From an uncultured Acidimicrobiales bacterium (GTDB taxonomy: Bacteria > Actinomycetota > Acidimicrobiia > Acidimicrobiales > CAVXTF01): a stretch of DNA of 64,000 nt. Below, one piece after another: positions 13,907 to 47,387 of this stretch (the first letter of the stretch is position 1; the number at the start of each line of letters is the position of its first letter). Location of the stretch: contig CAVXTF010000002.1 of assembly GCA_963764615.1 (NCBI GenBank), positions 1,746,745 to 1,810,744 on the forward strand, written 5' to 3'. The translations under genes and the position numbers were made by a program. Under the pieces are notes generated by a model. That model was not told the DNA's origin. It saw only the letters and a program-made list of their open reading frames with translations, and made no database searches.

Positions 13907-13926
13907 GGGCGGACGAACCGGTATCC

Positions 13927-31471: not shown

Positions 31472-33468
31472 CTAGCTCTTCAGGGTCACCCTCAGCCCGA
31501 GCCTCGCCACTTCGGGGAGTATCTGTGGCCGGAGCCACTCTCCGCCTTGAACGGTCACGTGGATGCCGTCGTCGGGGTAGCGAACGTCGATGCCGTCGAT
31601 GGCCATCGCGTACCGGCCGGCCGGGTCGAGGATGCGATTCAGATCGATCAGCGTGGTCGTGGTCGGATGCTCAGCCGCAACCTGCCTGAGAAGGCTGTTC
31701 CACTCGTCTACACGCGAGGGGCGCGTTCTCCGGCCACGCGTCGCCGTCGGGCTGCTCCAAAGGTGGGTCGATGTAGGGGAAGGTGAAGATCACCACGTGC
31801 GCCCCCCCGGCCGAAAGGGTCCTCACCGCCCGGTTGAGATCGGCCAACAGATGGGCGTCCCACGCCGGCTCGCCGACATGCACCCACGTCCCGTCGTAAA
31901 GATGGTCTGCGAGCTCGAAGCGACCGATGAGCAGGCCGACGACCTGGGGACGGATCGTCGCCACCTCGGTGGCCCAGGACCTCGGCCAGTTCCCGCACTC
32001 GGGGCTCCCGTACGCGACTCCGGCGACGCGGGTCGCGAACGGATCCAGATCGCACCCGAGAATTCCGTCGTTCACCACGTCGACCCCGTAGTCCTCGATC
32101 GAGTTCCAGCTGAGCCCGACGGCGGTCGTCAACGCCACCGAATCGCCGACCATCAGGAAACGCAACGGGTCGGACGTAAAGGCGTGAGCGGAGGCGAGGG
32201 CTTCGTGCTCCGTGACCGGAACTCCTACGGAACCTCTCAACAGGCCAGCGGGAACCGACGCAAATGCCGGCGGTACCGTAGCGATGACCACCGCCGCCGC
32301 GGTTGCAAGCGCACCGCCCGCAGCGATTGGAAGTCCCCGCCAGCTGCGCGCGATGTAGCCGCGCCTTATCGGCTGCTCGACGAGATGGAACGACGCCACG
32401 GCGGTGGCGAAGGTGACGCCGAGTCGCACCGCCAGCAGCGCGGCTCCCTGCAGACCGGTGTGGGCACGATCGAGGGCTAAGAACAGCGGCCAGTGGTACA
32501 GGTAAAGACCGTAGGAGATCCGTCCTATGTACGCGAGGGGCGGAACAGAAAGGGCCCGGGCGAGCACAGAGCCGCGCCAGCTTGAAACGCTCGTGATCAC
32601 GGCCCCCGCCGCCAGGGCCACCAACAGGAACCCGCCCTCGTACAAGAACGCGTCCTGGCCGCCGACGGCGTGCCAGCACCACAACAAAGCTCCCGCACCC
32701 GAAACTCCGAGGACCCCGCCGACCGCACGCCCTCGGCCGGTATCCGCCCATCTGGCAGGAACGACCCTCCAATCGCGGCGCGATGCGAGAGCCCCGAGCA
32801 TGGATCCCACCAGCAGCGCCTGCGCTCTCGTGTCGGTCCCGTAGTACAACCGGTCGGTCGAGAATCCGTCGAGGTACATGCTCGCCATGAGCAGCGCGGA
32901 GGCCGCAGCCCCGGTTCCCGCCACCCAGGCCAGAACTCGCGACCCCCTCGATCGCAGGATCACGAAGGCCACCAACGGCCATATGACGTAGTACTGCTCT
33001 TCGACCGACAACGACCACATGTGGAGCAGCGGTGAAGGTGCGGTGGACTGCGCGAAATAACCCTGATTCGAGATGATGAAGTGCCAGTTGGCGAAGTAGA
33101 GCAAGGTCGAGATCGCATCACCGCGGATGGCGGTCACGTCGACGGAGTCCCTGTACCCCCACGCGTAGACAGCGACCGCCACAAGCAGCACCAACAAGGC
33201 CGGCAGGAGCCTGCGGGCCCTGCCCGCCCAGAATCTCCCCAGGCGGATGGAGCCCGACTCCAGGTGCTCTCCGCAAAGCAGGCTCGTGATGAGGAACCCT
33301 GAAAGCACGAAGAACACGTCGACGCCGAGTAGTCCCCCGCCTACCCCGCCAACGCCCGCGTGGTACAGGAGCACGGCGCACACCGCGAATGCCCGGATCC
33401 CGTCCAGGAACCCCAGGCGCTCCTCGCCCGCCCGGTCCCGTTCTCGTCCCGGCGCCGTTTCCGTCACT
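31472..33468 (-). pseudogene. AT3 (OafA-like) acyltransferase with C-terminal SGNH domain, one frameshift near the 3' end (or sequencing error)
   Basis: FLDGIRAFAVCAVLLYHAGV...GVDVFFVLSGFLITSLL and HMWSLSVEEQYYVIWPL are AT3 motifs. Track ORF 31671..33710 ends in ...WPENAPLACRRVEQPSQAGCG. A -1 frame read by hand continues PSRVDEWNSLLRQVAAEHPTTTTLIDLNRILDPAGRYAMAIDGIDVRYPDDGIHVT..., an SGNH block V-like sequence, to the TAG at 31472. The shift lies at the gggg run 31718-31721. A likely GTG start at 33468 is 21 nt after the coaE stop. Confidence 0.75.
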
Positions 33469-33489
33469 CGGTCGATCTCAAAAGCTATC

Positions 33490-34107
33490 TCAGGGCGCTG
33501 ACGAGGTCCGGGCCAGCAGATCCGCCCAGAGCCGGTCCACCTGCGCCTGCAGGGAATCGAGGTCCCCGCTGTTGTCGAGCACCACGTCCGCGAGAGCGCG
33601 ACGTTCCTCCCTGGTGATCTGCGCCGCCAACCGCGCCTCTGCGTCCGCGCGATCGAAGCCGCGCTGGCCGACGAGCCGCTCCACCGCCGTCTCCGTCGGC
33701 GCGTCCACAACGACCACCACGTCGAAGCCGAGCTGCTCGCGGTGCGTCTGTTTCAGAAGCGGGATGTCCATGACGACCACGGCACCTGCTTTTTCGGCCG
33801 CGGACCGCCGTTCAACCATCAACTGCCCGATCACCGGATGGGTCGCGGCGTTAAGGTCGGCGAGCGCCTGAGGGTCGTTGAAGACGATCTCCGCGAGTGC
33901 CTTGCGGTCGATGGTCCCGTCGACAGCGACCACGGCATCGCCGAACCGCTCGACCACAGGTCCGTACGCCGGGCCGCCTGGAGCGACCACTTCGCGCGCG
34001 ATCGCATCTGCGTCGACCAAGACAGCACCCTTCGACGCGAGCATGTGAGCCGCAGTCGACTTGCCGGAGCCGATACCTCCGGTGAGACCCACCGTGACTG
34101 CACTCAT
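33490..34107 (-). CDS. coaE: dephospho-CoA kinase
   Basis: 205 aa with the VGLTGGIGSGKST P-loop and overall CoaE length and layout. Confidence 0.9.
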   Translation of the reverse strand: MSAVTVGLTGGIGSGKSTAAHMLASKGAVLVDADAIAREVVAPGGPAYGPVVERFGDAVVAVDGTIDRKALAEIVFNDPQALADLNAATHPVIGQLMVERRSAAEKAGAVVVMDIPLLKQTHREQLGFDVVVVVDAPTETAVERLVGQRGFDRADAEARLAAQITREERRALADVVLDNSGDLDSLQAQVDRLWADLLARTSSAP

Positions 34108-34117
34108 CGCCGAGGAC

Positions 34118-34951
34118 TCACCGCCTGGGATCGCCGGCTATGGCGAACAGCACGAGGGTCGTGTCGTCGATCTCGTCGGTTACGAAGAAGTCGTCCGCCG
34201 TTATGCCGCTCGAGCCCCCCGTGTCGTGGCGCGCCATGATCCTGTATGCGAGTGGCAGCGCACGCGTGTAACCCGCGACGTACCACGAGCGCGGTATGCG
34301 GTGGCGGAGGTCGAACACGTCGAGTGAGAGCACCTTCGCAGCGCGCTCGCGTCGTGCGGCGAAGTCCGCCTTCACTGCGTCAGTGGCGTCGAGGCCCCCT
34401 ATCCACACATCTGAGAAGTACACCGACAGCAGGGATCGCAGCTCCTTCGCGTCGAAGAGATGGACATGGAACGGGTTCTCGAAGTCCGCGGGCGCGTTGG
34501 GAGTGAGAATCAGCGCCCTGCCCGCGGGCTTGAGCACCCGGGCCATCTCTTCGACGTGGCCTTCGGGCTGCTCGAAGTGCTCGATCAGGTGAGAAGAGCA
34601 CACGTAGTCGAAGGACCCTCCGCCGATGCAAAGCGCCAGGGCGTCGGTCCGCGCCACCGACAGCCCCGATCCCGCATGGATCCTCGCCGCGTGCTCGACC
34701 GCATCGATGCTGTAGTCGACGCCGACGACAGATCTTCGCGGCCCGATCAACCTGACGGACTCGAAACCCTGCCCGCACCCGAGGTCGAGGAGCCTGCCTT
34801 CGCCCACCCTGGCCGTGACGGCGCGGTAGCCGGCGTCGTGCAGAGCGAGCAGAGAGTCGGGAGTCACCCCCTGGACAGGGCGCTCTCCGGTCAGCCTGGC
34901 CAACTCACCTCCTAGAAGCGGGGCCTGGTTCTCCCCGACGGCGCCCCGCAT
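34118..34951 (-). CDS. class I SAM-dependent methyltransferase
   Basis: 277 aa with LLDLGCGQGFES (motif I), FDYVCSSHLIEH and LKPAGRALILTPN. Confidence 0.75.
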   Translation of the reverse strand: MRGAVGENQAPLLGGELARLTGERPVQGVTPDSLLALHDAGYRAVTARVGEGRLLDLGCGQGFESVRLIGPRRSVVGVDYSIDAVEHAARIHAGSGLSVARTDALALCIGGGSFDYVCSSHLIEHFEQPEGHVEEMARVLKPAGRALILTPNAPADFENPFHVHLFDAKELRSLLSVYFSDVWIGGLDATDAVKADFAARRERAAKVLSLDVFDLRHRIPRSWYVAGYTRALPLAYRIMARHDTGGSSGITADDFFVTDEIDDTTLVLFAIAGDPRR

Positions 34952-35049: not shown

Positions 35050-38000
35050 GTGGCGCGAGAAGCGGCAGCGACCACGCCTCGAGACACGGCCGGCGCTCCG
35101 GGCCCGGCGCGCACCATCCGCACGGCGGCCGCCTCGTGGTTCGAGTACGTGACCGTCGCCCTGTTCGCGTTCGTCCCGCAGCTCGCGTCCCAACCCGGCG
35201 TGGTCGATTCCGACACGAAGTCCTATCTCTTCATCGACCCGGCGAGGTTCCTAGCCCAGTCCGCCTCGATGTGGGACCCCGACATTGCGCTCGGTACCGT
35301 CACCCACCAGCAACTCGGCTACCTGTTCCCCATGGGGCCGTTCTTCCTCGCGACTCATGGCCTCGGTATCCCGGTGTGGGTAGCGGAGCGGCTCTGGGTG
35401 GGCGCGACCCTCTTCGCCGCCGGTGCAGGAGTCATCTACCTGGCGAGGACACTCGGCATGCGGGGTCCTGGCGTGCTCGCAGCCGGAATCGCGTACATGC
35501 TCTCGCCGTACTTCTTGCAGTACGTGGGCAGGATCTCGGTGATCCTCCTGTCCTGGGCGGCGCTGCCCTGGCTCGTGGCTCTGGTGGCGCGTGCGATGCG
35601 TCAGGGGGGATGGCGGTACCCGGCCCTGTTCGCCCTCGTCGCGCTCACAGCGGGCGGCGTCAACGCGAGCTCGCTCATATACGTCGGCGTGGGCCCGTTG
35701 CTTTGGCTGCCCTACTCGGTGCTCGTGAGCCGCGAGCAGACCTGGCGCAGGGCATGGGCCGTGCTCTGGCGCACCGGGTTGTTGACGCTCGCGGTTTCGC
35801 TGTGGTGGATCGTCGGCCTCGAGATCGAAGGGGGATACGGGCTCGACATCCTCAAGTACACAGAGACGGTCCAGGCCGTGAGCCAGACCTCTTACGCGTC
35901 GGAAGTGCTTCGCGGACTCGGCTACTGGTACTTCTACGGCTCGGACCGTATAGGCCAGTGGGTCGCGACCTCGACCCAGTTCACCCAGGAGATCTGGCTG
36001 ATCGCTACCAGCTTCGCGGTTCCGGTCGCAGCATTTGTCTCGGCCGTAGTCGTTCGCTGGCGCTACCGGGCGTACTTCGTGCTGCTTGTGGTCGTCGGGC
36101 TCGTCCTGTCGGTAGGCGCGAACCCGTTCGGAAACCCGTCACCTCTGGGAGCCCTCCTCAAATGGCTGATGACGGATACGACGGCCGGCCTCGCCATGCG
36201 CTCGACGGACAGGGCGTCGCCTCTTCTTCTGCTCGGGACCTCCATGCTGCTCGGTGCGGGGGTGAGCGCGCTCGCTAGAAGCGTCAGGCTCGCCGGGCTC
36301 GCGTCGTGTGCAGCAGCGATCGGCCTCGTGTGCGCTGCCAACCCGGCGGTGTTCAACGGGGCCACCGTGGCCGACAATTTCACGCAGCCCTCACCACTAC
36401 CTACCTTCCTCACCGACGCCACGAGCGCCCTGAACGCGCAACCCGGGGGCTCGGGGCCGGCCGCCACGAGAGTGCTCGCGATACCCGGCCAGAACTTCGC
36501 TGCGTACCGATTCGGCGACACGATCGACACGGTCTATCCAGCACTGCTCACCCGACCGTTCGCACAACGCGAACAACAGGAGTACGGGTCGCTTGCAACC
36601 CAGGACGTCCTATACGCGCTCGACGATCCGATACAAGAGGGTTATTTCGTGTCGAGCGGGCTCGCGCCGATGGCGAGCCTGATGAGCGCGGGGTCCCTTC
36701 TCGTCCAGAACGACCTCGCCTACGAGCGATACAACCAGCCGACCCCACTCCAGGTCGAGCAGGACCTCACACCGACCCCGCCGGGGCTCGGGAGCCCCAC
36801 CGGATACGGACCTCCCCAGCCGAACCAGTCGCTCATCGCCGAGATCGACGAGGTCACCGAAGCCGAATCGCCCGACCAGTCCTGGCCGTCGCCGCTCGAG
36901 GTGTACCCGGTGGAGGATCCTCGCCAGATCGTGCGCGCCGAGACTCAATCCGCCCCGCTCATCGTCGACGGAGACGCGGAAGGCATCTCGGCGGCCGCCG
37001 ACGTCGGGCTCCTCGCCGGCAATCCGACAATTCTTTACGCGACTACTTTGGACAGCCGGCCCGGCGCGATCCAACAGACTGCTGCGAGCGGCGCGACGCT
37101 CGTGCTCACCGACACCGATCGCAAGCGCGAGTTCCGCTGGAACTCAGTGGCGCAGAACGCCGGCTACACGGAAACCGCCGCACAAGGACCGTCATCGGAC
37201 CCCACGGCGGAGCCGATCGACAGCTTCTTGCCGCAGACTCCGGATTCGCAGAGCGTCACCGTCTTCGGGGGGATCAAGTCCGTTGAAGCGTCCGACTACG
37301 GAAACGATGTGCAGAATCTGCCCGAGGACCGTGCAGCAATGGCCCTGGACGCGAACACCCAGACCTCGTGGCAGACGTCGGCGTTCTCCAACCCGGTCGG
37401 ACAATGGTGGCAGGTGGCCCTCGACCACCCGACCACTACCGATCACATCAACCTTCTGCAGGTCATAACCGGTTCGCTCACCCGCTGGATCACGAGCGCG
37501 ACCCTCACCTTCGACGGCAAAAAGACGATTCATGTGTCCTTGGGGCCGTCATCGCGCTCGCTGTCGGGCAAGGGCCAGACCGTGACCTTCCCTACGACCA
37601 CCTTCCAGACGCTTCGCATCACCATCGACGGCACAAACCTCAACCAGGCGGGGAATACCGCAAGCCTGCCCGGAGTCGGGTTCGCAGAGGTGAGGATCCC
37701 GGGCGTGACCATGCAGGAATACGTGTCGTTGCCCGAGGACATGCTCCGCACGCTCGGAAGCTCGTCGATCGACAACCGCCTCGTCATGATCCTCACGCGC
37801 CTGCGGGTCGCCCCCGAGCCGCCCAGAACCGATCCGGAGACGAGCATGTCGCGGATATTCTGGCTGCCGACAACGCGCAACTTCACGCTGACGGGTGAGG
37901 CATCGATCGACGCTCTCATCCCCGACGACGCGATCGACCGCCTCGTCGGGAGGCAGGGATCGAACGGCACAGGCATCGTGGCGTACTCGTCGGGCCGCCT

Positions 38001-39684
38001 GCCCGGCGACCTTCACGACGGGGCGGAAGCTGCGCTCGACGGCAATCCGGCCACGATGTGGTCGACGGGGTTCGGAGCGAACGCTCTAGTCGACCCGTGG
38101 ATCGAGGTGAACCTGCCGAGCCCCGTGACGGTCAGCCATCTCGACCTGCAGGTTGTCGCGGACGGCCATCACTCGGTGCCGGCGAGCGTGCGGGTCACGG
38201 CGTGCGACACGTTGCCTGTCAGCTCGTACTGCGCTGCAGACGCCTCCAACTCGGTCGAGCTCCGACTACCGCCCATCTCCGACGGAAAGCGACAGGGCGA
38301 CACGGTGACCTTGCCGCTGAATTTCCGTCCGCTCACCGGTCGTTTCCTCACATTCACGTTCACGAGCGTGAGAACCGAGACGTCGGTCAACTACTACTCG
38401 GAGTCACCTCTCGCGATGCCGATAGGAGTCGCCGAGCTCGGGATACCCGGAGTGGACGAACCGGCTCCGCCAGCAAGCATCCCGGCGGTGTGCACCGACA
38501 AGCTGCTCACCATCGACTCCAAGCCGGTCTGGGTGGAGATCAGCGGAAAGAGCGCTGCCGCTCTCGACGGCGACGAGCTCCCGCTCTCCCTCTGTGGGCC
38601 TGACGCCCGAGGGCTCGAGCTCGGCCCAGGGGCGCACACGGTCGTGGCCACTTACGGGCACGCGAACGGCCCGCATTCGACAGGGTGGGATCTCGACCAG
38701 CTCACGTTCGACTCGGCGCCTGGAGGAGGTGCGGAGCCCGACGCCGCAGGCGGGCCTGTCGTCGCGCCCCACATCGCAGGTGGAACGCCCACTGTGAAAG
38801 TGATCTCATCCACCGCGACGACATGGAAGCTCCAAGTCTCCGGCGCGACAGGGCCTTTCTGGTTGGTGCTCGGCGAGACCCAGAACCGCGGCTGGCAGGC
38901 GTCGGTCGACGGCGGCCCGTCGCTCGGCGGGTCGACACTGATCGACGGCTTCGCGAACGGGTGGAAGGTGGACCCCGGGGACCTTGGTGCTGCCGCAAAA
39001 GGCGCGAAGTTCGACGTGACCCTGGACTGGACGCCGCAGGACCGCGTCTGGGAAGCGCTCTTCATCTCGGGCGCGGCCGCTGTCGTCTGCGTCGTGCTCG
39101 TCGCGCTCCCGCGCCGAAGGCGCCGCCGGACCGGTTGGGAAGTCTGGCGATCGCGTCAAGGTCATGTTCCAGTTGAGCGCGACGCCAACGGCGCGACAGC
39201 GGCCACGACCGTCGGTCAGGCGGACGTCGGGCCCGTCCTCGGCTCCCCGGCGACGTTCCCCCGGTCGCAACGTCCACCTCTGTGGATAGCGGGCCTTGCC
39301 GCCGTGGGGGCCGGCCTCGTGGCTTCGGCCCTGTCGACTCCTTGGTCTCCCTGGGCCGGTCTGGTGATCGGCCCTGCGGTCGGGCTCGTGGTGCTCGTGC
39401 GCCGGACGAGGCTGCTCCTCACCCTGTCTGCGGTCGGGCTGGTGATCGCCGCCGCCATCTACGTGGTCCTCGGTCAGGCTCAGCACCACTACCTGGTCGG
39501 GGCGACATGGCCGGGAGAATTCGAGCCCGCAGCGATCATGACGTCGCTCGGGGTCCTGTTGCTCGGAGCCGACGCCCTCGCTGAACGCGTCCGCACCGCG
39601 CGACCGGTCAGCGAACCCGGTGGCGTCTCCGGGCCTCGTCGACGAGGGCGCCGAGGGTCCCACTCGCAGTCGCCCCCCAGGTGA
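35050..39684 (+). CDS. AftD-like (alpha-(1->3)-arabinofuranosyltransferase family / DUF3367) giant GT-C membrane glycosyltransferase with discoidin-like modules
   Basis: 1544 aa. QPGVVDSDTKSYLFIDPARFL...QQLGYLFPMGPFF matches the AftD N-terminal signature as I recall it. Multiple TM helices follow. F5/8-type-C-like signatures occur (AMALDANTQTSWQT, AALDGNPATMWST), and there are C-terminal TM helices. Confidence 0.8.
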   Translation: MAREAAATTPRDTAGAPGPARTIRTAAASWFEYVTVALFAFVPQLASQPGVVDSDTKSYLFIDPARFLAQSASMWDPDIALGTVTHQQLGYLFPMGPFFLATHGLGIPVWVAERLWVGATLFAAGAGVIYLARTLGMRGPGVLAAGIAYMLSPYFLQYVGRISVILLSWAALPWLVALVARAMRQGGWRYPALFALVALTAGGVNASSLIYVGVGPLLWLPYSVLVSREQTWRRAWAVLWRTGLLTLAVSLWWIVGLEIEGGYGLDILKYTETVQAVSQTSYASEVLRGLGYWYFYGSDRIGQWVATSTQFTQEIWLIATSFAVPVAAFVSAVVVRWRYRAYFVLLVVVGLVLSVGANPFGNPSPLGALLKWLMTDTTAGLAMRSTDRASPLLLLGTSMLLGAGVSALARSVRLAGLASCAAAIGLVCAANPAVFNGATVADNFTQPSPLPTFLTDATSALNAQPGGSGPAATRVLAIPGQNFAAYRFGDTIDTVYPALLTRPFAQREQQEYGSLATQDVLYALDDPIQEGYFVSSGLAPMASLMSAGSLLVQNDLAYERYNQPTPLQVEQDLTPTPPGLGSPTGYGPPQPNQSLIAEIDEVTEAESPDQSWPSPLEVYPVEDPRQIVRAETQSAPLIVDGDAEGISAAADVGLLAGNPTILYATTLDSRPGAIQQTAASGATLVLTDTDRKREFRWNSVAQNAGYTETAAQGPSSDPTAEPIDSFLPQTPDSQSVTVFGGIKSVEASDYGNDVQNLPEDRAAMALDANTQTSWQTSAFSNPVGQWWQVALDHPTTTDHINLLQVITGSLTRWITSATLTFDGKKTIHVSLGPSSRSLSGKGQTVTFPTTTFQTLRITIDGTNLNQAGNTASLPGVGFAEVRIPGVTMQEYVSLPEDMLRTLGSSSIDNRLVMILTRLRVAPEPPRTDPETSMSRIFWLPTTRNFTLTGEASIDALIPDDAIDRLVGRQGSNGTGIVAYSSGRLPGDLHDGAEAALDGNPATMWSTGFGANALVDPWIEVNLPSPVTVSHLDLQVVADGHHSVPASVRVTACDTLPVSSYCAADASNSVELRLPPISDGKRQGDTVTLPLNFRPLTGRFLTFTFTSVRTETSVNYYSESPLAMPIGVAELGIPGVDEPAPPASIPAVCTDKLLTIDSKPVWVEISGKSAAALDGDELPLSLCGPDARGLELGPGAHTVVATYGHANGPHSTGWDLDQLTFDSAPGGGAEPDAAGGPVVAPHIAGGTPTVKVISSTATTWKLQVSGATGPFWLVLGETQNRGWQASVDGGPSLGGSTLIDGFANGWKVDPGDLGAAAKGAKFDVTLDWTPQDRVWEALFISGAAAVVCVVLVALPRRRRRRTGWEVWRSRQGHVPVERDANGATAATTVGQADVGPVLGSPATFPRSQRPPLWIAGLAAVGAGLVASALSTPWSPWAGLVIGPAVGLVVLVRRTRLLLTLSAVGLVIAAAIYVVLGQAQHHYLVGATWPGEFEPAAIMTSLGVLLLGADALAERVRTARPVSEPGGVSGPRRRGRRGSHSQSPPR

Positions 39685-40864
39685 ACTTGCCGGCGTGACG
39701 GATCGCGCCCTTGGCGAGCTCACCGAGGCGCACCGGGTCCGCGATGAGCTCCGAAACCGCCCCCGCCAGGGCGGCGGGATCGTCGACCAACACGCCACTC
39801 ACACCGTGGTCGACCGCATCTTCGTGCCCTGCTATCCGGGTCGCGACCGCCGGTGTGCCGCATGCGCCCGCCTCGGTGATCGTCATCCCCCATCCCTCGC
39901 GCAACGAGGAGCTGACGAGGACCCAGGCGCGCCTGTAGACGTCGACCAGATCGTCGTCGGAGAGCTTGCCCGGCATGTCGATCCAGTGGTCGGCGCCAAG
40001 CTCGTGGCGGCGGGCCTCGAGGCGCGCCCGCTCGTAGCCCTCGCCCACGATGACGGCTCTCAACGCGGGATGATCGATACGGACCTTTGCGAGCGCGTCA
40101 ATGAGTGCGTCGAATCGCTTCACTGGCACGAGCCTTCCCACTGCTACCACCAGCGGGGATGACGAGCGTTCGCCGCTCGGGGTGAAGCGCGGCTCGACGC
40201 CGGGCGGCACGACGCTCACGCGTTCGGGCCGCATCTTCAGCATCGACACGATCTCGGCGCGAGACGACTCGGAGAGCGTCACCAGGCTCGTGCGCCTGTA
40301 CAAAGGCGGCGCGAGCGTCTGCTCGACGAACCTGCCGGCCCTGGCGAGGTTGGGAGGAAGGGTCATCTGCCACATCTCGGCGTGGACGTGGTGGAGGAAC
40401 ACGACCCTCGGGCCCGTTGCCCAGAGCGGAGAGAAGAAAGGCATGCCGTTCCAGATCTCGACCCATCCGTCGTTGCGCCCGTGCCTGCGAAAGGCGCCAC
40501 TGAGCGCGCTCCTTGCGAAGACGGCGTACCTGCCTGACTTGCGGACCACCCTGTACCCGTCGCGCTCGGTGAACATCGGTTGGCCCTCTGCCCTCGATGC
40601 ACGCATGGTGACGTCGAGACCCGCGGCCGCCCAAAGAGATGCGATGCGATGGGCATGGAGCTCCGAGCCCCCGGCTTCGGGATCGTCGAGATCGCGCCAC
40701 GCGAGAATGTGAACACTGCCCATGCCGAGGCGGCCGGCCTCGTCGACCAGCTCGCCGAGCGGCCGGCGATCGTTGCGGTCCCCGGCGGCGGTCGATGACA
40801 CCCGTGCAGCGCTCCTGTGGCCCACGTCGGCCCGTGCGGCCGCCCTAGTGCTCTGTTGCCTCAC
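39608..40864 (-). CDS. GT4 (GT-B fold) glycosyltransferase
   Basis: GGSELHAHRIA near the N-terminus and EGWGMTITEAGACGTPAVATRIAGHEDAV (EX7E region). The ATG at 40723 (MGSVHILAWRDL) is a plausible true start. Confidence 0.8.
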   Translation of the reverse strand: MRQQSTRAAARADVGHRSAARVSSTAAGDRNDRRPLGELVDEAGRLGMGSVHILAWRDLDDPEAGGSELHAHRIASLWAAAGLDVTMRASRAEGQPMFTERDGYRVVRKSGRYAVFARSALSGAFRRHGRNDGWVEIWNGMPFFSPLWATGPRVVFLHHVHAEMWQMTLPPNLARAGRFVEQTLAPPLYRRTSLVTLSESSRAEIVSMLKMRPERVSVVPPGVEPRFTPSGERSSSPLVVAVGRLVPVKRFDALIDALAKVRIDHPALRAVIVGEGYERARLEARRHELGADHWIDMPGKLSDDDLVDVYRRAWVLVSSSLREGWGMTITEAGACGTPAVATRIAGHEDAVDHGVSGVLVDDPAALAGAVSELIADPVRLGELAKGAIRHAGKFTWGATASGTLGALVDEARRRHRVR

Positions 40865-40913: not shown

Positions 40914-42257
40914 TCACTGTAGCCCCGGACGCCTGCCGGCCACCTTGTGGACCCTCAGGAATCCGACACCGACTAGGCCCGCCAGCAGGGCCTGGACCAC
41001 CAGGTCGGCGCGAGCGGTCTTCGAAGGGTCGCCGTGAGCCTGGTAGAAGACCACGGCCGCGGCCGCCGTGCCGGCACCGAGCACGGCCACGATCCAGCGC
41101 CTCCCCGCCCCAAGGAGGTAGTTGGTCAGGAGAACCGTCACGCACAGAAACGCCATCGCTGCAACGAGAGTCGAGAACGATCCCGACGCCCCGACAAGCC
41201 GCGGCCCGAAGGCGAGACGGATGAGCTGCTTCGGTGCGAGGAGCGAGGCGACGAGCAGACCGGACGCCGGCACCGCGAGGATGAGGGCGGTGGTGGCGAG
41301 CTGCCGCAGGGCGTGCTCGCCTCTGTGCCACCTGATTGTCGCCTCGGGAAGGAGGTAGCTCCCAAGTGCTATGGCGCCGAAGACGATCGCCTTCGACGCA
41401 ACCGAGATTGCGGCGTAGGCGCCGGAATGCCTTGGCGATTCGCGCCCGAGCAGGATCACGTCGAGGTTCTGGAGCAGCGCCAAGAAGGCGAGGCAACCGA
41501 AGGCGGTGGCGACGTCCGACGCGAGGTGCCTCCTCGAGCTGACCGAAGCGGGTTGCGAGCCGGGTTCCGAAGGGTCGGGCTCCCCTGCCCACCTGCGCGT
41601 CGACTCGAAGCGGGCGTGGACCGCGGCGGCGGCCTCGCCGAGGAGGACCCCAACGCACACGCCCGTCACGCCGAAGCCCGCTCCGGTGAAGATGAGGACG
41701 AAGGCCATGCGCATGCCGCCCTCCACCAACAGGTTCACAGCGAGGGGCCGATAGGCGCGACGCGCCTGCAGCAGCCCCCTGTCGACCGAGAGGGCGAGCC
41801 ATATCCCACCGGCCGCGACGATCGGCACGATGCCGCCGGCATTGTCGAGCGACAGCGCGTGCGCCACTGCATCCTGGAGCACCAGCGCGAGCAGGGTGAG
41901 CAGAGCCACACCGGCAAGGGTCAGCCGGTGGAGGCGTACAGCGAAGGACCTGACGTTTGCTCCGAGCCCGGCGGTGCGCAGCGCCGTCGCTCGACGGACG
42001 ACTCCGACCAGCAGGGCCGAGCCCGGCATCGACAGAAAGAGGAAGATCCCGTTCAGCTGGGCGAGCTCGCCGTACCCCCGCGAGGTTAGGAGGCGGGCGA
42101 CCACCACGGTCACGACCACGTTGGCACCGTTGGCGACGAGGCCGGCGATCGCGATGGGCCCGGCGTGGCGGATACCCGCCACCACTCCCGAGTCGCCCAG
42201 GTCGCTCTCTGCGAGGTCCTCCGCCGCTCCGAGGGGGACCATCCCGCTAGGCCTCAC
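40914..42257 (-). CDS. polysaccharide/oligosaccharide flippase-like MOP family membrane protein (Wzx-like)
   Basis: 447 aa with about 12-14 hydrophobic segments. The N-terminal region IAGLVANGANVVVTVVVARLLTSRGYGELAQL is typical of Wzx-type polysaccharide biosynthesis proteins. Confidence 0.55.
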   Translation of the reverse strand: MRPSGMVPLGAAEDLAESDLGDSGVVAGIRHAGPIAIAGLVANGANVVVTVVVARLLTSRGYGELAQLNGIFLFLSMPGSALLVGVVRRATALRTAGLGANVRSFAVRLHRLTLAGVALLTLLALVLQDAVAHALSLDNAGGIVPIVAAGGIWLALSVDRGLLQARRAYRPLAVNLLVEGGMRMAFVLIFTGAGFGVTGVCVGVLLGEAAAAVHARFESTRRWAGEPDPSEPGSQPASVSSRRHLASDVATAFGCLAFLALLQNLDVILLGRESPRHSGAYAAISVASKAIVFGAIALGSYLLPEATIRWHRGEHALRQLATTALILAVPASGLLVASLLAPKQLIRLAFGPRLVGASGSFSTLVAAMAFLCVTVLLTNYLLGAGRRWIVAVLGAGTAAAAVVFYQAHGDPSKTARADLVVQALLAGLVGVGFLRVHKVAGRRPGLQ

Positions 42258-42292: not shown

Positions 42293-43867
42293 TCATCCGA
42301 GGTTGGTGCCGGCGGCCACGCGCTTAGGCACCACGGGCGCCGTCCTACCCGTTCCCTCGCCTGCGTCGCGCACCTTCTCCTCGTGATACTCCTCTTCGAC
42401 GTTCACGACCCAGATGTCGTGGTGCGCCCCTTCGACGATGTTCTCCACGGTGAGCATGGCCGTGTACATCGAATGGTCCTGGTTGTTGTACTTGTGCATG
42501 CCGTTACGGCCCACCGCGTGGACGTTGGGCACCTCTTTCGCGAGCCATGACCTGATGGTCTCCACAGCCTGCTGGTAGCCCTCGTCGTACACCGGGTACG
42601 CCTTGGGCATGCGGACCACGAAGCCGCGCTCGACGTCGTCGCGCCCGACAAGGCCGAGCGCGGTGAGCTCGTCGGTCGCCATGGCGATGAGGGCTGCGTC
42701 GTCCGAGTCCCACAGTTCGTCGCCCTCGAAGACGAAATACTCGAGCCCGAGGCAGGTGCGGCCGTCTTTCACCATGTAGGGGGACCACGACCCGAAGTTC
42801 TGGATGCGCCCGACCTTCACGCCCGGGTAGTGGACGTATATCCAGTTGTCAGGGAACCCGGCGTGCCGCGGTACCACTAACGCTACGGTCAGGAAGTCCC
42901 GGTAATGGAGATCGGCCGCCGCCTGAAGCACCTCGGGGGGCGCCGGTGGGTCCATGGCTCTGACGAGAGCCGAGTACGGCATCGAGGAGATCACGTGGCT
43001 CGCTCCGGTCACCGACTCCCCGGTCCCGTCCTCGTAGCCGACCGCGAAGGCGCCGCCGTCTTGCCGCCAGATCCTTGTCACAGGGCTTGTGGTCCTGACC
43101 TCGCCCCCTGCTTTTTCGACGAGCTCGGTGCAGCGCTCCCACATCATGCCGGGGCCCAATTTCGGGTACTGGAATTCGTCGATCAGGCTCGTCACGTCCG
43201 TGGAGTGCTTGTTCGGCAGAAGGGCGTTCGCTATCGCCTTTCCGAGCGACAGGGTCTTGATGCGCTGCGCGGCGAAGTCGGCCTTGAGCTCGGTGCCAGG
43301 GACGCCCCACACCTTCTCTGTGTAGGTCTTGAAGAACGTCCGGTAAAGACGCCAACCGAACCGCGACGCGGTCCATCCCTCATACGAGTCGAGGTCCTTC
43401 GGAGGCCTCACCCTCACCCACGCGTAGGACAGGACGCACAACGTGGCCTCGAGCACCCCGAGGTTCCTCAAGGCGTTCACCGCCCGTAGCGGATAGTCGA
43501 AGAACTTGCCGTCGTAGTAGATCCGGCTCATCCGCGGGCGCAACAAGAAGTCCTCGTCGGGCAGGATCTCGTGCCACAGGTTTTCTACCGCCTGGACCTT
43601 CGTGAAGAAGCGGTGCCCGCCTATGTCGAATCGCCACCCGTCGCGCTCGACTGTGCGACTGATCCCTCCGACGACGTCGTCCGCCTCGAGGACGACAACC
43701 GGCCACGCCGCCTTTGTGAGCTGGTAGGCAGCCGTGAGCCCGGCAGGACCTGCGCCTATCACCACGACAGGAGTGTCGCCCCCGATGGTGCCGGCGCGAG
43801 CGGTGCCCTCGTCGGCCGCCTCGCGCAGGGGCGCCGATTTGCCGTTCGCCTCTGCTGTCGATCGCAC
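42293..43867 (-). CDS. FAD/NAD(P)-binding oxidoreductase (amine-oxidase/UDP-galactopyranose-mutase-like Rossmann N-terminus)
   Basis: VVVIGAGPAGLTAAYQL...VLEADDVVGGISRT...FDIGGHRFF. The longest ORF starts at 44140, but its first ~90 aa look non-coding. The GTG at 43867 is more plausible. Confidence 0.65.
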   Translation of the reverse strand: MRSTAEANGKSAPLREAADEGTARAGTIGGDTPVVVIGAGPAGLTAAYQLTKAAWPVVVLEADDVVGGISRTVERDGWRFDIGGHRFFTKVQAVENLWHEILPDEDFLLRPRMSRIYYDGKFFDYPLRAVNALRNLGVLEATLCVLSYAWVRVRPPKDLDSYEGWTASRFGWRLYRTFFKTYTEKVWGVPGTELKADFAAQRIKTLSLGKAIANALLPNKHSTDVTSLIDEFQYPKLGPGMMWERCTELVEKAGGEVRTTSPVTRIWRQDGGAFAVGYEDGTGESVTGASHVISSMPYSALVRAMDPPAPPEVLQAAADLHYRDFLTVALVVPRHAGFPDNWIYVHYPGVKVGRIQNFGSWSPYMVKDGRTCLGLEYFVFEGDELWDSDDAALIAMATDELTALGLVGRDDVERGFVVRMPKAYPVYDEGYQQAVETIRSWLAKEVPNVHAVGRNGMHKYNNQDHSMYTAMLTVENIVEGAHHDIWVVNVEEEYHEEKVRDAGEGTGRTAPVVPKRVAAGTNLG

Positions 43868-44078: not shown

Positions 44079-45221
44079 CTACGGCACGTACAGCCCGGTG
44101 AAGGCGAGGAGCGAGTAACAAGCGAGCCCAGCAGCTGCAAGCACGAGGACCGCGGTCTCAGCGCGTGGTGAGCGGTCGAGCGAGGCGCCAGCGATCACGA
44201 GCGGGAACGCCGAAAGGGCATAGCGCTCGAACGAATCCAGGTTCGAAGCGGTCAGGGCCACCGCAAGGACGAGGAAAGCGAACCCCGCGTAGGACGCGGG
44301 CAGCCTCACCGCTGCGACGACAGCGAGGAGCACGGCGAGGATCACCCACGGAAGGTGGAACGCGGTGCCGAGATGACTTCCGTGGACCAGGAGGCTCGCG
44401 TCGTGACCGAGCGTTGAGAACGGGTCGGCGAGTGCTCCCCTGTGCCCTGCCTCCTCTTGGATGCGAAGCGGGGCGAACGCGTCGCCGTAGCGCCATCCGC
44501 ACCATGCAAGGAACGCGCCGCAACCGAGCGGTCCTCCGATCACGGACACGAGAGCCGCGGTGCGGCTCGACCGGGTCGAGCGCGCCGACATGGTCGACCG
44601 AGCAGGATGGGTATGGCTCCAGGCTCTCGCGCACTCGATCGCGGCAGGAACCACCAGGAGCGCGCCGAGCGGCCGCGCCAGGCCCGCGAGAACCGACAGT
44701 GCGGCTGCCGCCCACCAACGGCGGCGGCGCATGCACAAGAACGCGCCGACACAGAGCATCACGAACGTCGACTCGGCGTAGCCCATGATGAAGACGAAAG
44801 CCGGAGGGGCCAGGCAGAGCAGCCATGCCGCCCGGCGCGCGAACTGCGCGTCGCCGGTCTCGCGTCTCACGAGGCTCGCGAGCAGCGCGGCTGCTGCCAG
44901 GGCACAGAGGTTGGAGACGACCACGAGTGCAACCCCGACCGATACCCCCGGCACCTCGGCCAGGGCGCGGGCGACTGCCGGGACCAAAGGAAAGAAGCGA
45001 AGAGAGGCGGGGCCGGCGCCCGCGTAACCGTGCTTGGCGATCGCTTCGTACCAGCCGGCGTCCCAACCGAGCAGACCCTGGCGGACCCTCGATGCGGACT
45101 GAGCGGACAGGCGGCCGTCACTCGTGAGCTCGCGGGCGACAGCAAGCGATGCGAGCACCACTGCCCGCGCCAACAGCCAAGGCGGGGCCGCGGTCCGCAC
45201 GGCCCAGCGCGCCCCGAGCAT
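44079..45221 (-). CDS. PIG-V-like mannosyltransferase family membrane protein (GT-C candidate)
   Basis: 380 aa, polytopic. GWDAGWYEAIAKHGYAGAGPASLRFFPLVPAVARAL matches the WDxxxYxxIAxxGY...FFPLxP signature of the Mannosyl_trans2 family. Confidence 0.55.
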   Translation of the reverse strand: MLGARWAVRTAAPPWLLARAVVLASLAVARELTSDGRLSAQSASRVRQGLLGWDAGWYEAIAKHGYAGAGPASLRFFPLVPAVARALAEVPGVSVGVALVVVSNLCALAAAALLASLVRRETGDAQFARRAAWLLCLAPPAFVFIMGYAESTFVMLCVGAFLCMRRRRWWAAAALSVLAGLARPLGALLVVPAAIECARAWSHTHPARSTMSARSTRSSRTAALVSVIGGPLGCGAFLAWCGWRYGDAFAPLRIQEEAGHRGALADPFSTLGHDASLLVHGSHLGTAFHLPWVILAVLLAVVAAVRLPASYAGFAFLVLAVALTASNLDSFERYALSAFPLVIAGASLDRSPRAETAVLVLAAAGLACYSLLAFTGLYVP

Positions 45222-45514: not shown

Positions 45515-46459
45515 GTGGGCCGCTACCTGCTAACTCGGCTGGTCCAGCTGGTCGTGATCGTCTGGGTCATCTCGATCCTCACCTTTTTGCTCGTCCATCT
45601 GCTGCCCGGCAATCCGATCGACACGATCCTCGGACCCAACCAGACCGTCCAGAACCGCGCGGCGCTGCTGAAGCAACTGGGATTGAACAAACCTCTTCTC
45701 GACCAGTACTGGATCTGGTTGAAGAACGTCTTGCACGGCAACCTAGGCGAGTCGTTCCTCAACCATCAGAACGTGACGACCATCATCGGCAACGCTTTCC
45801 CATTCGACATCGAGCTGATCCTCTACTCGCAGATCATCTCGTTTGTCATCGCGATTCCTCTCGCGCTCGTGTCTTCGCGACGGCCCAACCGGCTCTTCGA
45901 CCGTCTCGCGGGCATGTCCACTTTCGGCATGCTCGCCATGCCGGCATTCGTGATCGGCCCTATCCTCGCCCTGGTCTTCGCAGTGAAGATCCACCTCTTC
46001 CCCGCCACGGGGGCGCCCGCTTTCACCTCCGCTCCCCTGACGAACATCCACAACATGACCCTGCCGTCGATCGCTCTCGCGTTCGGGTCCATAGCGGTCT
46101 ATTACCGTTTGCTGCGTGGCGACCTCATAAGCACCCTGCAAGAGGACTTCATCACCATGGCGAAGTCGAAGGGCCTGTCGACCCGCTACATAATGGTGAG
46201 GCACGCGCTACGGCCTTCTTCGTTCTCGATGCTCGCCTCTGCGGGCCTCAACATCGGCACGCTCATCACCGGCGCATTCGTCGTCGAATACCTGTTCGGC
46301 ATTAACGGTATTGGCTTCCAACTCGTCAACTCGATCAACCAGCGCGACTATTTGGCTGTTCAGGGCATGGCGCTCGTCGTCGCCCTGGTCTACGTCGTAG
46401 TGAACTTCTTCGTGAATTTCCTCTACACGGTCCTGGACCCGAGGATCGCCCGTGCCTGA
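45515..46459 (+). CDS. ABC transporter permease, Opp/Dpp/Nik family (OppB-like)
   Basis: 314 aa with N-terminus MGRYLLTRLVQLVVIVW, six TM segments and a BPD-transporter signature region (ITMAKSKGLSTRYIMVRHALR). Confidence 0.85.
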   Translation: MGRYLLTRLVQLVVIVWVISILTFLLVHLLPGNPIDTILGPNQTVQNRAALLKQLGLNKPLLDQYWIWLKNVLHGNLGESFLNHQNVTTIIGNAFPFDIELILYSQIISFVIAIPLALVSSRRPNRLFDRLAGMSTFGMLAMPAFVIGPILALVFAVKIHLFPATGAPAFTSAPLTNIHNMTLPSIALAFGSIAVYYRLLRGDLISTLQEDFITMAKSKGLSTRYIMVRHALRPSSFSMLASAGLNIGTLITGAFVVEYLFGINGIGFQLVNSINQRDYLAVQGMALVVALVYVVVNFFVNFLYTVLDPRIARA

Positions 46460-47387
46460 CGTCATCGGATCGGCCACTACGAGCGAATCGCTCATGGAGC
46501 GCCCGCCTCTGCTTCCCGGTGGTTCGCCAATGACGGTCCTCGAAGTCGAGACGGAGTTCAGGGCGCACAAGAAGCTCGGGGTGTTCTTCTGGATCTGCGT
46601 GGGCTGGGTCTCTTTCATAATCCTGCTCGCCATCTTTGCGAACGTTCTGCCGTTGCAGTCGCCGACGGCCATCGGCGCACTCCCGTTCGCCGGCCCGAGC
46701 TCGGGCCACTTGCTCGGCACCGACGACCTCGGCCGCGACCTGCTATCGCGGATCATCTTCGGCTCTCAGCCGACCCTCACGATCTGCTTCGCCTCGATAG
46801 CCATCGGGCTCATCATCGGCGGAACCGCCGGCATGCTCGCCGCGTACACCGGCAAGATCGTCGACAACATCGCCAATGCGATCGCTTTCATCATCATCTC
46901 GTTCCCACCGCTGCTCGCGATCCTCGTGATCATCGCCTTCTGGGAGCCTCCGACCGTCTTGAAGCTCACGCTTATATTCGCGGTCGCTTCGATCCCTCAG
47001 CTCTTCGTCGTACTCCGAGCCACCTCCCTCGCTTTCGTGAATCGCGACTTTGTGACCGCGGCGCGCACCATGGGGGCGAAGACTCCCCGGATCCTCGTGA
47101 GGGAGATCCTCCCGAACATCGCACCCGCAGGATTGTCGTACGGACTCATCGGGGTGGCCTCCGTCGCAATCATCGAGGGCTCCCTCGCTTTCCTCGGGCT
47201 TTCCATCCCCGAGCCGCATCCCTCGGTAGGGAACATCATCTCGGAAGGGATTCCATATCTTCAGAACAACAGCGACGTCTGGATCACCGTGTTCCCCTGT
47301 CTGTACCTGTTCTTCCTGCTCATCTCGATCAGCTACATAGGAGACCGTCTCCGTTCGAGGTTCGACGTGCGCGAAGGAAACGTGTGA
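46452..47387 (+). CDS. ABC transporter permease, Opp/Dpp/Nik family (OppC-like)
   Basis: 311 aa with LGTDDLGRDLLSRIIFG and FVTAARTMGAKTPRILVREILPN motifs. It overlaps the previous gene by 8 nt. Confidence 0.85.
   Translation: MPDVIGSATTSESLMERPPLLPGGSPMTVLEVETEFRAHKKLGVFFWICVGWVSFIILLAIFANVLPLQSPTAIGALPFAGPSSGHLLGTDDLGRDLLSRIIFGSQPTLTICFASIAIGLIIGGTAGMLAAYTGKIVDNIANAIAFIIISFPPLLAILVIIAFWEPPTVLKLTLIFAVASIPQLFVVLRATSLAFVNRDFVTAARTMGAKTPRILVREILPNIAPAGLSYGLIGVASVAIIEGSLAFLGLSIPEPHPSVGNIISEGIPYLQNNSDVWITVFPCLYLFFLLISISYIGDRLRSRFDVREGNV

Follow-up and report, generated by a model that had tools for sequence, protein, structure and literature searches.

An AftD-family membrane glycosyltransferase in a conserved, predicted cell-envelope glycopolymer locus of Acidimicrobiales

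What does a relative of mycobacterial AftD do in a bacterium outside the mycolate-producing lineages? Soil and peat are rich in Acidimicrobiales; nearly all of them are uncultured, and their envelope is essentially undescribed. In contrast to the mycobacterial hosts of AftD, no mycolic acids or arabinogalactan are known from the host studied here. The question arises from one large open reading frame in a 64,000-nucleotide stretch of a contig from an uncultured soil bacterium of the Acidimicrobiales (hereafter the window). A preliminary description, made from the sequence without database searches, had proposed an AftD-like glycosyltransferase with a substrate of its own. Biochemical characterization of the AftD family is limited to Mycobacteriales. 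There, AftD and the acyltransferase TmaT form a complex coordinating two pathways, and two 2026 preprints place AftD at the node that joins arabinogalactan and mycolate assembly.

The gene is a single open reading frame, annotated here in its longest version from a GTG start, with a coding-like codon-position GC (GC3 0.82, GC2 0.54). Translation may in fact begin as many as ~30 codons after the GTG; alignments to homologues begin at query residue ~19 to 32. The protein and its parts are as follows.

35050..39684, + strand: AftD-family GT-C glycosyltransferase, 1544 aa (single ORF, GTG start, longest version)
35104..36354, + strand: N-terminal membrane part of the GT-C domain, aa ~19-435, ~11 transmembrane helices (AF2 helices, hydropathy)
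36355..37239, + strand: periplasmic alpha/beta part of the GT-C domain, aa ~436-730, with D493 (PF11847 match reaching aa 712, alignment, AF2 secondary structure)
37252..37734, + strand: first beta-sandwich discoidin-like CBM, aa ~735-895 (DUF7402/NADase_discoid at aa 759-864, AF2 beta strands)
37978..38439, + strand: F5/8 type C / CBM_AftD module, aa ~977-1130 (PF00754, PF24607 and CBM32 Foldseek matches)
38440..39039, + strand: further periplasmic beta-rich region, aa ~1131-1330, covered by the structure model to aa 1200 (AF2 strands at aa 1149-1199, conserved alignment columns)
39055..39582, + strand: C-terminal bundle of 4-5 transmembrane helices, aa 1336-1511 (hydropathy)

This open reading frame encodes an intact membrane glycosyltransferase belonging to the same family as mycobacterial AftD, as had been proposed. 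The Pfam family GT-C_AftD (PF11847, formerly DUF3367) matched aa 43-712 at 291 bits, far above the cut-off of 26 (E=1.8e-86), and the match spans positions 5-652 of the 661-position model. In a phmmer search of PDB sequences, AftD was the sole match (6w98/6wbx, E=3.5e-35, aa 37-1034); the C-terminal transmembrane region, which in AftD includes the site near R1389 where acyl carrier protein binds on the cytoplasmic side, does not align in sequence to 6w98 (second stretch, -10 bits). The AF2 model, covering aa 1-1200 of 1544 (pLDDT 76, pTM 0.65), had as its best Foldseek match the cryo-EM structure of Mycobacterium abscessus AftD (6w98_A, E=2.1e-39, TM 0.65/0.60 across 1251 columns), followed by unrelated CBM32 and STT3 proteins. 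Both checks suggested for the AftD assignment, against the DUF3367 model and against the AftD structure, came out in its favor. The domain order is shared with mycobacterial AftD (Rv0236c; M. abscessus 6W98, 6WBX, 6WBY): an 11-TM GT-C part, a periplasmic alpha/beta part, discoidin-type CBMs and a C-terminal transmembrane bundle.

The sequence motifs that had drawn attention to the protein fall within these parts. QPGVVDSDTKSYLFIDPARFL occupies aa 48-68 (nt 35191-35253) and LGYLFPMGPFF aa 89-99. The claim of at least two F5/8-type-C-like signatures holds, with F5_F8_type_C (PF00754) matching at 58 bits in two stretches (best aa 991-1106) and CBM_AftD (PF24607) at 28.5 bits against a cut-off of 27 (aa 986-1071); DUF7402 matched aa 768-864 slightly below its cut-off. 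Both motifs quoted for these signatures were located: AMALDANTQTSWQT at aa 763-776 (nt 37336-37377), inside the first discoidin-like module, which aligns with the AftD CBM1 region, and AALDGNPATMWST at aa 994-1006 (nt 38029-38067), inside the F5/8 type C / CBM_AftD module. Hydropathy gave ~11 N-terminal transmembrane segments and 4-5 C-terminal ones (aa 1336-1511), in agreement with the extra C-terminal helices noted earlier, and the same C-terminal topology has been described for AftD homologues (Tan et al., bioRxiv 10.1101/2019.12.22.885152).

The preliminary description had restricted AftD to mycolate producers, and this does not stand: Tan et al. found AftD homologues of the same topology in 11 other, non-mycolate orders of class Actinobacteria. 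The window protein has more than 2500 homologues, the closest 85% identical, and its best 80 genomic loci all belong to Acidimicrobiales or Acidimicrobiaceae MAGs. NCBI names the Acidimicrobiales homologues "alpha-(1->3)-arabinofuranosyltransferase family protein". That automated name is also borne by the AftD-family proteins found in Streptomycetaceae and Streptosporangiales, which are ~25-32% identical to the window protein and likewise come from hosts not known for mycolic acids. Our literature search found no paper joining Acidimicrobiia with an arabinofuranosyltransferase. The protein is an uncharacterised branch of an already annotated family and no new type of system.

Is the active site retained? 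Overall identity to mycobacterial AftD is ~20%. In two mycobacterial studies, alanine mutants at the K39, E251, K361 and D474 positions failed to complement, and D41A and D25A were non-functional. Of the five essential residues that mark AftD in the strict sense (K39, D41, E251, K361, D474), three are identical here (K57, E272 and D493 for K39, E251 and D474), K361 is Arg (R388), and D41 is replaced by Tyr (Y59). W272 is also conserved; Asn45 has changed to Asp and Glu475 to Thr. In a residue mapping on M. abscessus AftD, D55, K57, Y59, D63, E272, W293 and R388 fall in the N-terminal membrane part as putative active-site residues. Across an alignment of 118 Acidimicrobiia sequences, ~50% identical overall, D55, K57, D63, E272, W293, R388 and D493 are invariant (118/118), which against that background argues for a maintained active site. 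The D41 position holds Tyr in 114 sequences and Phe in 4, and the invariant D63 sits at the N45 position, four residues past Y59.

Loss of Asp41 is not unique to Acidimicrobiia. The Streptomyces/Embleya group likewise lacks it, having Gly41 and Asp45, and many Streptosporangiaceae-type proteins have Ser41/Asp43. Asp41 is instead a mark of mycobacterial-type AftD, including that of Nonomuraea, which unlike the window protein keeps the mycobacterial DTKxDLxxNP motif. The Acidimicrobiales proteins, with Asp41 moved to position 45, are natural active-site variants for structure-function work.

The genes around the AftD-like gene were compared across 46 related loci with full flanks, 45 of which contain coaE. 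The neighbors in the window are listed with the number of loci in which each occurs.

31671..33710, - strand: Acyl_transf_3 (+SGNH) O-acyltransferase, 679 aa, beyond coaE (Pfam; 13/46 loci)
34118..34951, - strand: class I SAM-dependent methyltransferase (Pfam; 39/46 loci)
39608..40864, - strand: GT4 (GT-B, nucleotide-sugar dependent) glycosyltransferase (Pfam; 41/46 loci)
40914..42257, - strand: multi-pass flippase-like membrane protein, Wzx/Polysacc_synt (sub-threshold Pfam; 37/46 loci)
42293..43867, - strand: UGM-like flavoenzyme, 524 aa, NCBIfam PRK07208 group (NF005548, 805 bits; 44/46 loci)
44079..45221, - strand: small GT-C, PIG-V/GT87-like, 380 aa (PF04188, 33 bits against a cut-off of 22; 37/46 loci)

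The set from methyltransferase to small GT-C, AftD-like gene included, lies beside uvrB-coaE in ~80-95% of the 46 related species, with the gene order kept in loci L001-L006. The methyltransferase and AftD-like genes are divergently transcribed across a 98-bp gap, and the GT4 gene is convergent with the AftD-like gene, overlapping its 3' end by 77 nt. The flippase-like protein matched PF01943 below threshold (E=2.3e-4, 21 bits against a cut-off of 28), and the L002 orthologue of the small GT-C has a weak GT87 match. The flanking genes had been described as a GT4, a flippase, an FAD oxidoreductase and a PIG-V-like GT-C; all are present, but the oxidoreductase is closest to UDP-galactopyranose mutases (UGMs). 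This locus makeup, a conserved set of predicted envelope-polymer genes, and the UGM-like flavoenzyme are among the new points of the analysis, together with the active-site pattern described above and the wider occurrence of the GT4 partner described below.

By sequence, the flavoenzyme is most similar to eukaryote-type UGMs, with the substrate-binding residues kept. Its best PDB sequence matches were the UGMs of Aspergillus fumigatus (E=1.5e-21) and Trypanosoma cruzi (E=2e-18), compared with E=1e-6 to 2e-5 for protoporphyrinogen oxidases (PPOX). The likeness to the eukaryote-type enzymes (3UTE/3UKH, A. fumigatus; 4DSG, T. cruzi) amounts to ~21% identity, a GGH loop, and the Arg, Tyr, Trp and Asn residues of the UDP/galactose site. 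Counterparts of A. fumigatus UGM (AfUGM) H63, R182, W315, Y317, R327, R447, Y453 and N457 are identical in the flavoenzyme and invariant among 28 of its homologues; from the AfUGM literature, we take these residues to serve in the flavin loop and in UDP-sugar binding. Unlike those enzymes, it is bacterial, has no Pfam GLF (PF03275) match, and does not conserve the Asn207 counterpart. The curated UGM model TIGR00031 scored 33 bits against a cut-off of 304, and the names that annotation gives the family go no further than 'NAD(P)/FAD-dependent oxidoreductase' and 'protoporphyrinogen oxidase'. Fold searching did not separate UGM from PPOX: Foldseek gave TM 0.71-0.76 to UGMs and, nearly level, 0.69/0.80 to protoporphyrinogen oxidase 2ivd (E=1.8e-25). 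That the flavoenzyme is UGM-like rather than a generic FAD oxidoreductase changed our reading of the locus.

We also compared the locus with the surroundings of AftD genes in other orders. The absence of flanking emb, aft and dprE genes had been taken to set this locus apart from the mycobacterial ones. No gene of Emb, Aft (AftA-C) or DprE type was seen among the window ORFs scanned, yet a 34-38% identical GT4 adjoins AftD genes in Embleya, Nonomuraea, Tsukamurella and Nocardia (L007-L010), and so spans Streptomycetaceae, Streptosporangiales and Mycobacteriales. The window GT4 is 34.5% identical to that of the Tsukamurella locus over 362 aa (E=3e-51), and the AftD genes of Embleya sp. NBC_00888 (L007) and Nonomuraea gerenzanensis (L008) have a GT4 directly upstream. 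With the Mycobacteriales tmaT-aftD locus (mtrP, cgp_3167, cgp_3166, mmpA, lmcA, tmaT, aftD), the window locus has in common the GT4 and a class I methyltransferase, the similarity of the latter being generic (E=2e-5).

UGM-like, flippase-like and GT87-like genes were not seen beside aftD in Tsukamurella and Nocardia, nor within 14 kb at the Embleya and Nonomuraea loci; the Nonomuraea gene is surrounded by MmpA-like, GT2, GT4, TmaT-like and DUF3068 genes. Conversely, the mycobacterial tmaT-aftD locus is linked with mycolate transport, for which the window locus has no equivalent, and the window gene, unlike mycobacterial aftD, has no adjacent TmaT-type partner (~400 aa). By tblastn, no homologue of the Tsukamurella TmaT-like neighbor, 570-aa membrane protein or 'polysaccharide biosynthesis protein' was found near the window gene, and the 570-aa and 388-aa Tsukamurella locus proteins had no window match at E<=1e-3. 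The two Acyl_transf_3 (+SGNH) genes of the window matched the Tsukamurella TmaT-like protein weakly (E=1e-3 over 50 aa; E=2e-8 at 26% identity). We rejected the 679-aa acyltransferase as a TmaT counterpart, given its 50-aa match, its resemblance to the SucT type at no more than family level and its presence in 13 of 46 loci.

On balance, we favor the reading that the protein is a functional AftD-family GT-C, predicted to act in the making of a cell-envelope glycopolymer, its locus being part of the core genome and inherited vertically. In the proposed pathway, the GT4 would start and extend a lipid-linked glycan in the cytoplasm from nucleotide sugars; these probably include a furanose, for which galactofuranose made by the UGM-like flavoenzyme is the likeliest candidate. 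The flippase-like protein would then carry the lipid-linked intermediate across the membrane. Outside, the AftD-like enzyme and the small GT87/PIG-V-like GT-C may lengthen or branch the chain with polyprenyl-phosphate sugars as donors. Catalysis by the AftD-like enzyme would take place in a cavity lined by D55/K57/D63, E272, W293, R388 and D493, with the discoidin-type modules gripping the growing polysaccharide, and the methyltransferase might act on the product or the lipid intermediate. UDP-furanoses are used by cytoplasmic glycosyltransferases and not by GT-C enzymes, so the presence of a UGM-like gene does not by itself tell which donor the AftD-like enzyme uses. Literature searches on GT-C enzymes together with galactofuranose, and on the distribution of DprE1, returned nothing useful.

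A substrate differing from that of mycobacterial AftD, as first suggested, must be weighed against an ordinary AftD, that is, a DPA-dependent alpha-(1->3)/(1->5) arabinofuranosyltransferase acting on an Acidimicrobiales arabinan, with the DPA pathway and other arabinosyltransferases encoded elsewhere in the genome. Such an enzyme would account for the match in family, fold and domain order, for the four of five essential positions kept or conservatively changed, and for the adjacent GT4 homologous to that of the mycobacterial aftD/tmaT region. It would not account for Tyr or Phe at the essential Asp41 in all 118 sequences, a position at which the mycobacterial mutant is non-functional. Moreover, in a tblastn search with M. 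tuberculosis DprE1, no match at E<=1 was found in the window or in 92 further loci (2.0 Mb in all). Since dprE1 and ubiA lie apart from aftD in mycobacteria too, the missing DprE1 near the locus is weak evidence. Nor do we know of arabinan in actinomycete groups with an Asp41-less motif, such as Streptomyces. In the one sugar analysis found for Acidimicrobiia, that of the cultured species Actinospongicola halichondriae, whole-cell sugars were rhamnose, ribose, mannose and galactose, with no arabinose (PMC12263773). We regard the ordinary AftD as unlikely. The replaced D41, the lack of DprE1 in or near the locus and the lack of arabinose in that species make a different substrate plausible: the sugar is probably not arabinose, D-arabinofuranose from DPA is less likely than another sugar, and an envelope polymer of sugars other than arabinose, possibly including a furanose, is a plausible product.

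The polymer might instead contain no furanose, being a lipoglycan or protein-linked glycan based on mannose or hexose; the AftD-like enzyme would then use polyprenyl-phosphate mannose or glucose, and the flavoenzyme would be a PPOX/amine-oxidase-type enzyme with a lipid or sugar intermediate as its substrate. The small GT-C matches the mannosyltransferase families PIG-V/GT87, relatives have PMT_2-type GT-Cs with the locus, mannose is among the A. halichondriae sugars, and the near-level PPOX fold match and missing GLF domain would fit as well. We nevertheless find this reading rather improbable, as the flavoenzyme's sequence match to UGM is ~15 orders of magnitude better than that to PPOX and eight UGM substrate- or flavin-site residues are identical and invariant. 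Loss of the catalytic Asp could also mean that the protein is mainly a non-catalytic scaffold or regulator of an envelope-assembly complex, like the TmaT-AftD node; AftD does complex with TmaT in Mycobacteriales, and the window contains Acyl_transf_3 genes at 31671-33710 and from 62326 to its end. The seven residues invariant among ~50%-identical sequences speak against this, as do the need for catalytic residues in the function of the mycobacterial complex and the lack of an adjacent TmaT-type acyltransferase, so we consider a scaffold very improbable.

Returning to the favored reading of an active enzyme in an envelope-glycopolymer locus, its three GT-C-type or GT-B enzymes, flippase-like protein and UGM-like flavoenzyme, together with its core-genome, ~80-95% conserved character, make it a good candidate for the main secondary wall polymer of these bacteria. 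The occurrence of AftD-family genes with the same GT4 partner in lineages without arabinogalactan or mycolate gives a hint of the enzyme's ancestral role. We tentatively extend this to a more speculative scenario, in which the AftD-family enzyme and its GT4 partner would be an ancient Actinomycetota envelope-glycan machine that predates both arabinogalactan and mycolic acids. Acidimicrobiales would have coupled it to a bacterial UGM of eukaryote type and two further GT-Cs, building a furanose-containing wall polymer or lipoglycan, possibly via a polyprenyl-phosphate furanose donor, and the TmaT-AftD node would be a later specialisation.

Several window genes outside the core set also bear on envelope chemistry. 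Association of the 31671..33710 acyltransferase with the locus is loose; it scored 111 bits against a cut-off of 1275 for the SucT-type NCBIfam model, and its L001 orthologue has an SGNH domain. In relatives, the PMT_2-type GT-Cs follow the GT87-like gene. Orthology of the window PMT_2 gene (49683-51134) to these was not supported, as it matches in 6/46 loci, and the tandem GT-C paralogues at 13858-18082 match the PMT_2 position in 14/46. A polyprenyl-phosphate-sugar-synthase-like GT2 at 21467-22258, found in 1/46 loci, is a possible donor supplier for the locus, and related GT2 genes lie beside GT4-AftD in Nonomuraea and near the UGM-like gene in L092.

Primary structure and predicted fold place the window protein in the AftD family of GT-C glycosyltransferases, and its homology to AftD is solid. 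The preliminary description had presented it as an AftD-like giant glycosyltransferase with discoidin-like modules and extra C-terminal transmembrane helices, and these features were confirmed, as were the four peptide signatures it quoted, all found where it had placed them. The gene for this protein and that for a nearby flavoenzyme resembling UDP-galactopyranose mutase (UGM) are as follows.

35050-39684, +: AftD-like ORF, 1544 codons, GTG start
42293-43867, -: UGM-like flavoenzyme, 524 aa, of the uncharacterised PRK07208 group

The AftD-like ORF has a coding-like GC pattern across codon positions, with a GC3 of 0.82 in a window of 66% GC. Pfam matched residues 43-712 to GT-C_AftD (PF11847, E=1.8e-86), two stretches to F5/8-type-C modules (the best at aa 991-1106), aa 986-1071 to CBM_AftD, and, near threshold, aa 768-864 to DUF7402. 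Among solved structures, the sequence search matched those of M. abscessus AftD alone (E=3.5e-35, aa 37-1034). Hydropathy indicated about 11 N-terminal and 4-5 C-terminal transmembrane segments. AlphaFold2, run on aa 1-1200 with 70 homologues, gave a model (pLDDT 76, pTM 0.65) whose best Foldseek match by far was the AftD structure 6w98_A (E=2.1e-39, TM 0.65/0.60, 1251 columns), followed by unrelated CBM32 proteins, STT3, and AftA. The C-terminal tail is Arg/Pro/Ser-rich and weakly conserved, and the 3' end of the ORF overlaps that of the convergent GT4 ORF by 77 nt (39608-39684).

The surrounding DNA is ordinary chromosome (gap, cofD, rapZ, uvrC, nadA, uvrA, uvrB ... coaE ... rpsA, polA), and the Acidimicrobiales AftD-like locus with its UGM-like flavoenzyme is strongly conserved. 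In relatives of about 50% identity, the order is uvrC-nadA-uvrA-uvrB-coaE-methyltransferase up to the AftD-like gene, followed by (GT4)-flippase-like-flavoenzyme-small GT-C-PMT_2 GT-C-SBP-ABC permeases. Among 46 related species loci with full 10-kb flanks, coaE was present in 45, the flavoenzyme in 44, GT4 in 41, the methyltransferase in 39, and the flippase-like and small GT-C genes in 37 each. The window departs from this pattern in having no PMT_2 or SBP gene immediately after the small GT-C, and in some 21 kb of extra glycan genes (12246-33710) that separate uvrB from coaE, which directly follows uvrB in most relatives. The inserted genes are listed below.

within 12246-33710: glucose-1-P cytidylyltransferase-like gene (sugar-1-phosphate nucleotidyltransferase)
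within 12246-33710: NDP-sugar 4,6-dehydratase
13858-15975 and 15944-18082: two tandem GT-C paralogues of about 710 aa
18030-20671, -: YfhO-like gene
21467-22258: 263-aa GT2, polyprenyl-phosphate-sugar-synthase-like
24001-26154: 717-aa protein without a Pfam match
within 12246-33710: methyltransferases
within 12246-33710: AAA/BTAD regulator pair and a PPC-domain protein

The YfhO-like region comprises three overlapping ORFs of 232, 465, and 260 aa, the first of which matches the C-terminal end of YfhO alone (model positions 763-835 of 835); it looks like one YfhO-like GT-C gene, either split by frameshifts or mis-split by ORF calling. An Opp/Dpp-type ABC transporter (45515-49686, +) comprises two permeases and two ATPases without an adjoining substrate-binding protein; in relatives, an SBP_bac_5 gene and a PMT_2 GT-C separate the permeases from the small GT-C. 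A probable secreted surface protein of the beta-helix type (890 aa; 51224-53896, +), which combines an N-terminal CSLREA-type motif with a Chlamydia-PMP-like repeat, occurs in only 5 of the 46 related loci.

For the active site, residues 22-868 of M. abscessus AftD were rebuilt from the printed alignment and aligned with 118 Acidimicrobiia sequences (the window protein plus 117 homologues). AftD chain numbering is the paper numbering plus 3, as verified on E251, W272, K361, and D474.

AftD active-site residues and their counterparts in the window protein and across the 118 Acidimicrobiia sequences
AftD D37; window D55; invariant
AftD K39; window K57; invariant
AftD D41; window Y59; Tyr in 114, Phe in 4
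AftD N45; window D63; Asp in 118/118
AftD E251; window E272; invariant
AftD W272; window W293; invariant
AftD K361; window R388; Arg throughout
AftD D474; window D493; invariant
AftD E475; window T494; Thr, Pro, or Ser

In M. abscessus AftD, alanine mutants of K39, D41, E251, K361, and D474 do not complement, and neither do the equivalent M. smegmatis mutants. Taken with the alignment, this means that one of five essential residues is missing in Acidimicrobiia, with an Asp one helical turn later. That the absence of Asp41 is peculiar to Acidimicrobiia was ruled out by the Streptomyces/Embleya group (Gly41/Asp45) and by many Streptosporangiaceae-type AftD-family proteins (Ser41/Asp43). Because these other actinomycete groups also lack it, Asp41 marks the mycobacterial type and not the AftD family. 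The Nonomuraea AftD-family protein keeps the mycobacterial DTKxDLxxNP motif (as DTKMDLALNP).

These differences bear on whether the enzyme transfers arabinose. An M. tuberculosis DprE1 query, verified by 1058 bits to PDB DprE1 entries, found no match at E<=1 in the window and 92 loci (2.0 Mb in total). This absence of an enzyme of the decaprenyl-phosphoryl-arabinose pathway is weak evidence, since mycobacteria, too, have dprE1 unlinked to aftD. The single chemotaxonomy paper located for Acidimicrobiia, on Actinospongicola halichondriae, lists rhamnose, ribose, mannose, and galactose as whole-cell sugars, with arabinose not among them (PMC12263773). Together with the Asp41 change, these observations favor, without proving, a sugar other than arabinose. 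Of the earlier proposal, an AftD-family enzyme outside the mycolate producers stands, and a different substrate is likely.

The flavoenzyme, previously described simply as an FAD oxidoreductase, is probably an NDP-sugar pyranose/furanose mutase, judging from its sequence. Its best solved-structure matches are eukaryote-type UGMs (A. fumigatus, E=1.5e-21; T. cruzi, E=2e-18 and nearly full length), whereas protoporphyrinogen and amine oxidases match at just 1e-9 to 1e-4. Counterparts of A. fumigatus UGM residues H63 (GGH loop), R182, W315, Y317, R327, R447, Y453, and N457, whose roles we take from the literature on that enzyme, are identical in the flavoenzyme and invariant among 28 homologues; N207 has no conserved counterpart. 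Fold by itself cannot decide between the two, as the predicted structure (pLDDT 76.5) resembles M. xanthus protoporphyrinogen oxidase almost as closely as it does UGMs (TM 0.71-0.76). The family is unusually conserved, with about 70% identity among Acidimicrobiales, Hamadaea (Micromonosporales), and a Mycobacteriales MAG, in which the gene has a PMT_2 GT-C, an epimerase, and a GT2 as neighbors. At E<1e-20 the family counts over 8000 database members, under names that are generic or probably wrong; the JGI label "protoporphyrinogen oxidase" is probably a mis-annotation.

Two July 2026 preprints show an AftD complex with the acetyltransferase TmaT and place aftD in a conserved locus alongside the methyltransferase gene mtrP, cgp_3167, cgp_3166, mmpA, and lmcA. 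Unlike that locus, the window has no TmaT-type gene adjoining its AftD-like gene, and the similarity between the two methyltransferases is of a generic kind. Among the AftD loci compared, UGM-like, flippase-like, and GT87-like genes occurred only in Acidimicrobiales. By tblastn, the window GT4 has homologues of 34-38% identity (E=1e-44 to 1e-51) in four AftD settings: directly upstream of the AftD-family gene in Embleya and Nonomuraea, and in the aftD region of Tsukamurella and Nocardia. On these matches, partnership of this GT4 with an AftD-family gene appears to be shared across classes. Nonomuraea gerenzanensis (NZ_LT559118.1, locus L008, 10175-20158) has a full MmpA-like/GT2/GT4/AftD/TmaT-like/DUF3068 cluster, so the tmaT-aftD locus apparently exists outside Mycobacteriales. 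Nonomuraea is not known to make mycolic acids. In the window, a second Acyl_transf_3 plus SGNH acyltransferase gene (62326-64000, +), truncated at the window edge, shares 26% identity across 395 aa with the Tsukamurella aftD-adjacent TmaT-like acyltransferase (E=2e-8). The comparison chromosomes were PLSDB records mislabelled as plasmids; NZ_CP108785.1, NZ_LT559118.1, and NZ_LN868939.1 are evidently chromosomes or pieces of them, and several such records (2.6 to 11.9 Mb) are a trap for plasmid statistics.

The suggestion that AftD is limited to mycolate producers did not hold: the family is neither new nor so confined, because homologues are already published and annotated. NCBI names them "alpha-(1->3)-arabinofuranosyltransferase family protein," and homologues of the same topology were reported in 11 non-Corynebacteriales orders of class Actinobacteria (Tan et al., bioRxiv 10.1101/2019.12.22.885152). 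Our literature search found no paper on AftD-family proteins of Acidimicrobiia. The class as Tan et al. used it excludes Acidimicrobiia (Bergey's classification). Of the new findings, three are of most use: the strongly conserved Acidimicrobiales locus that includes a UGM-like flavoenzyme, the shift of the first-loop Asp throughout the clade, and the apparent cross-class GT4 partnership. More than 2500 database proteins match the window protein at E<=1e-10, the best at 85% identity and most at about 50%. When one genome was scanned for each GTDB species, 162 relatives emerged, and the 80 best all come from uncultured Acidimicrobiales/Acidimicrobiaceae MAGs from soil, peat, and bog.
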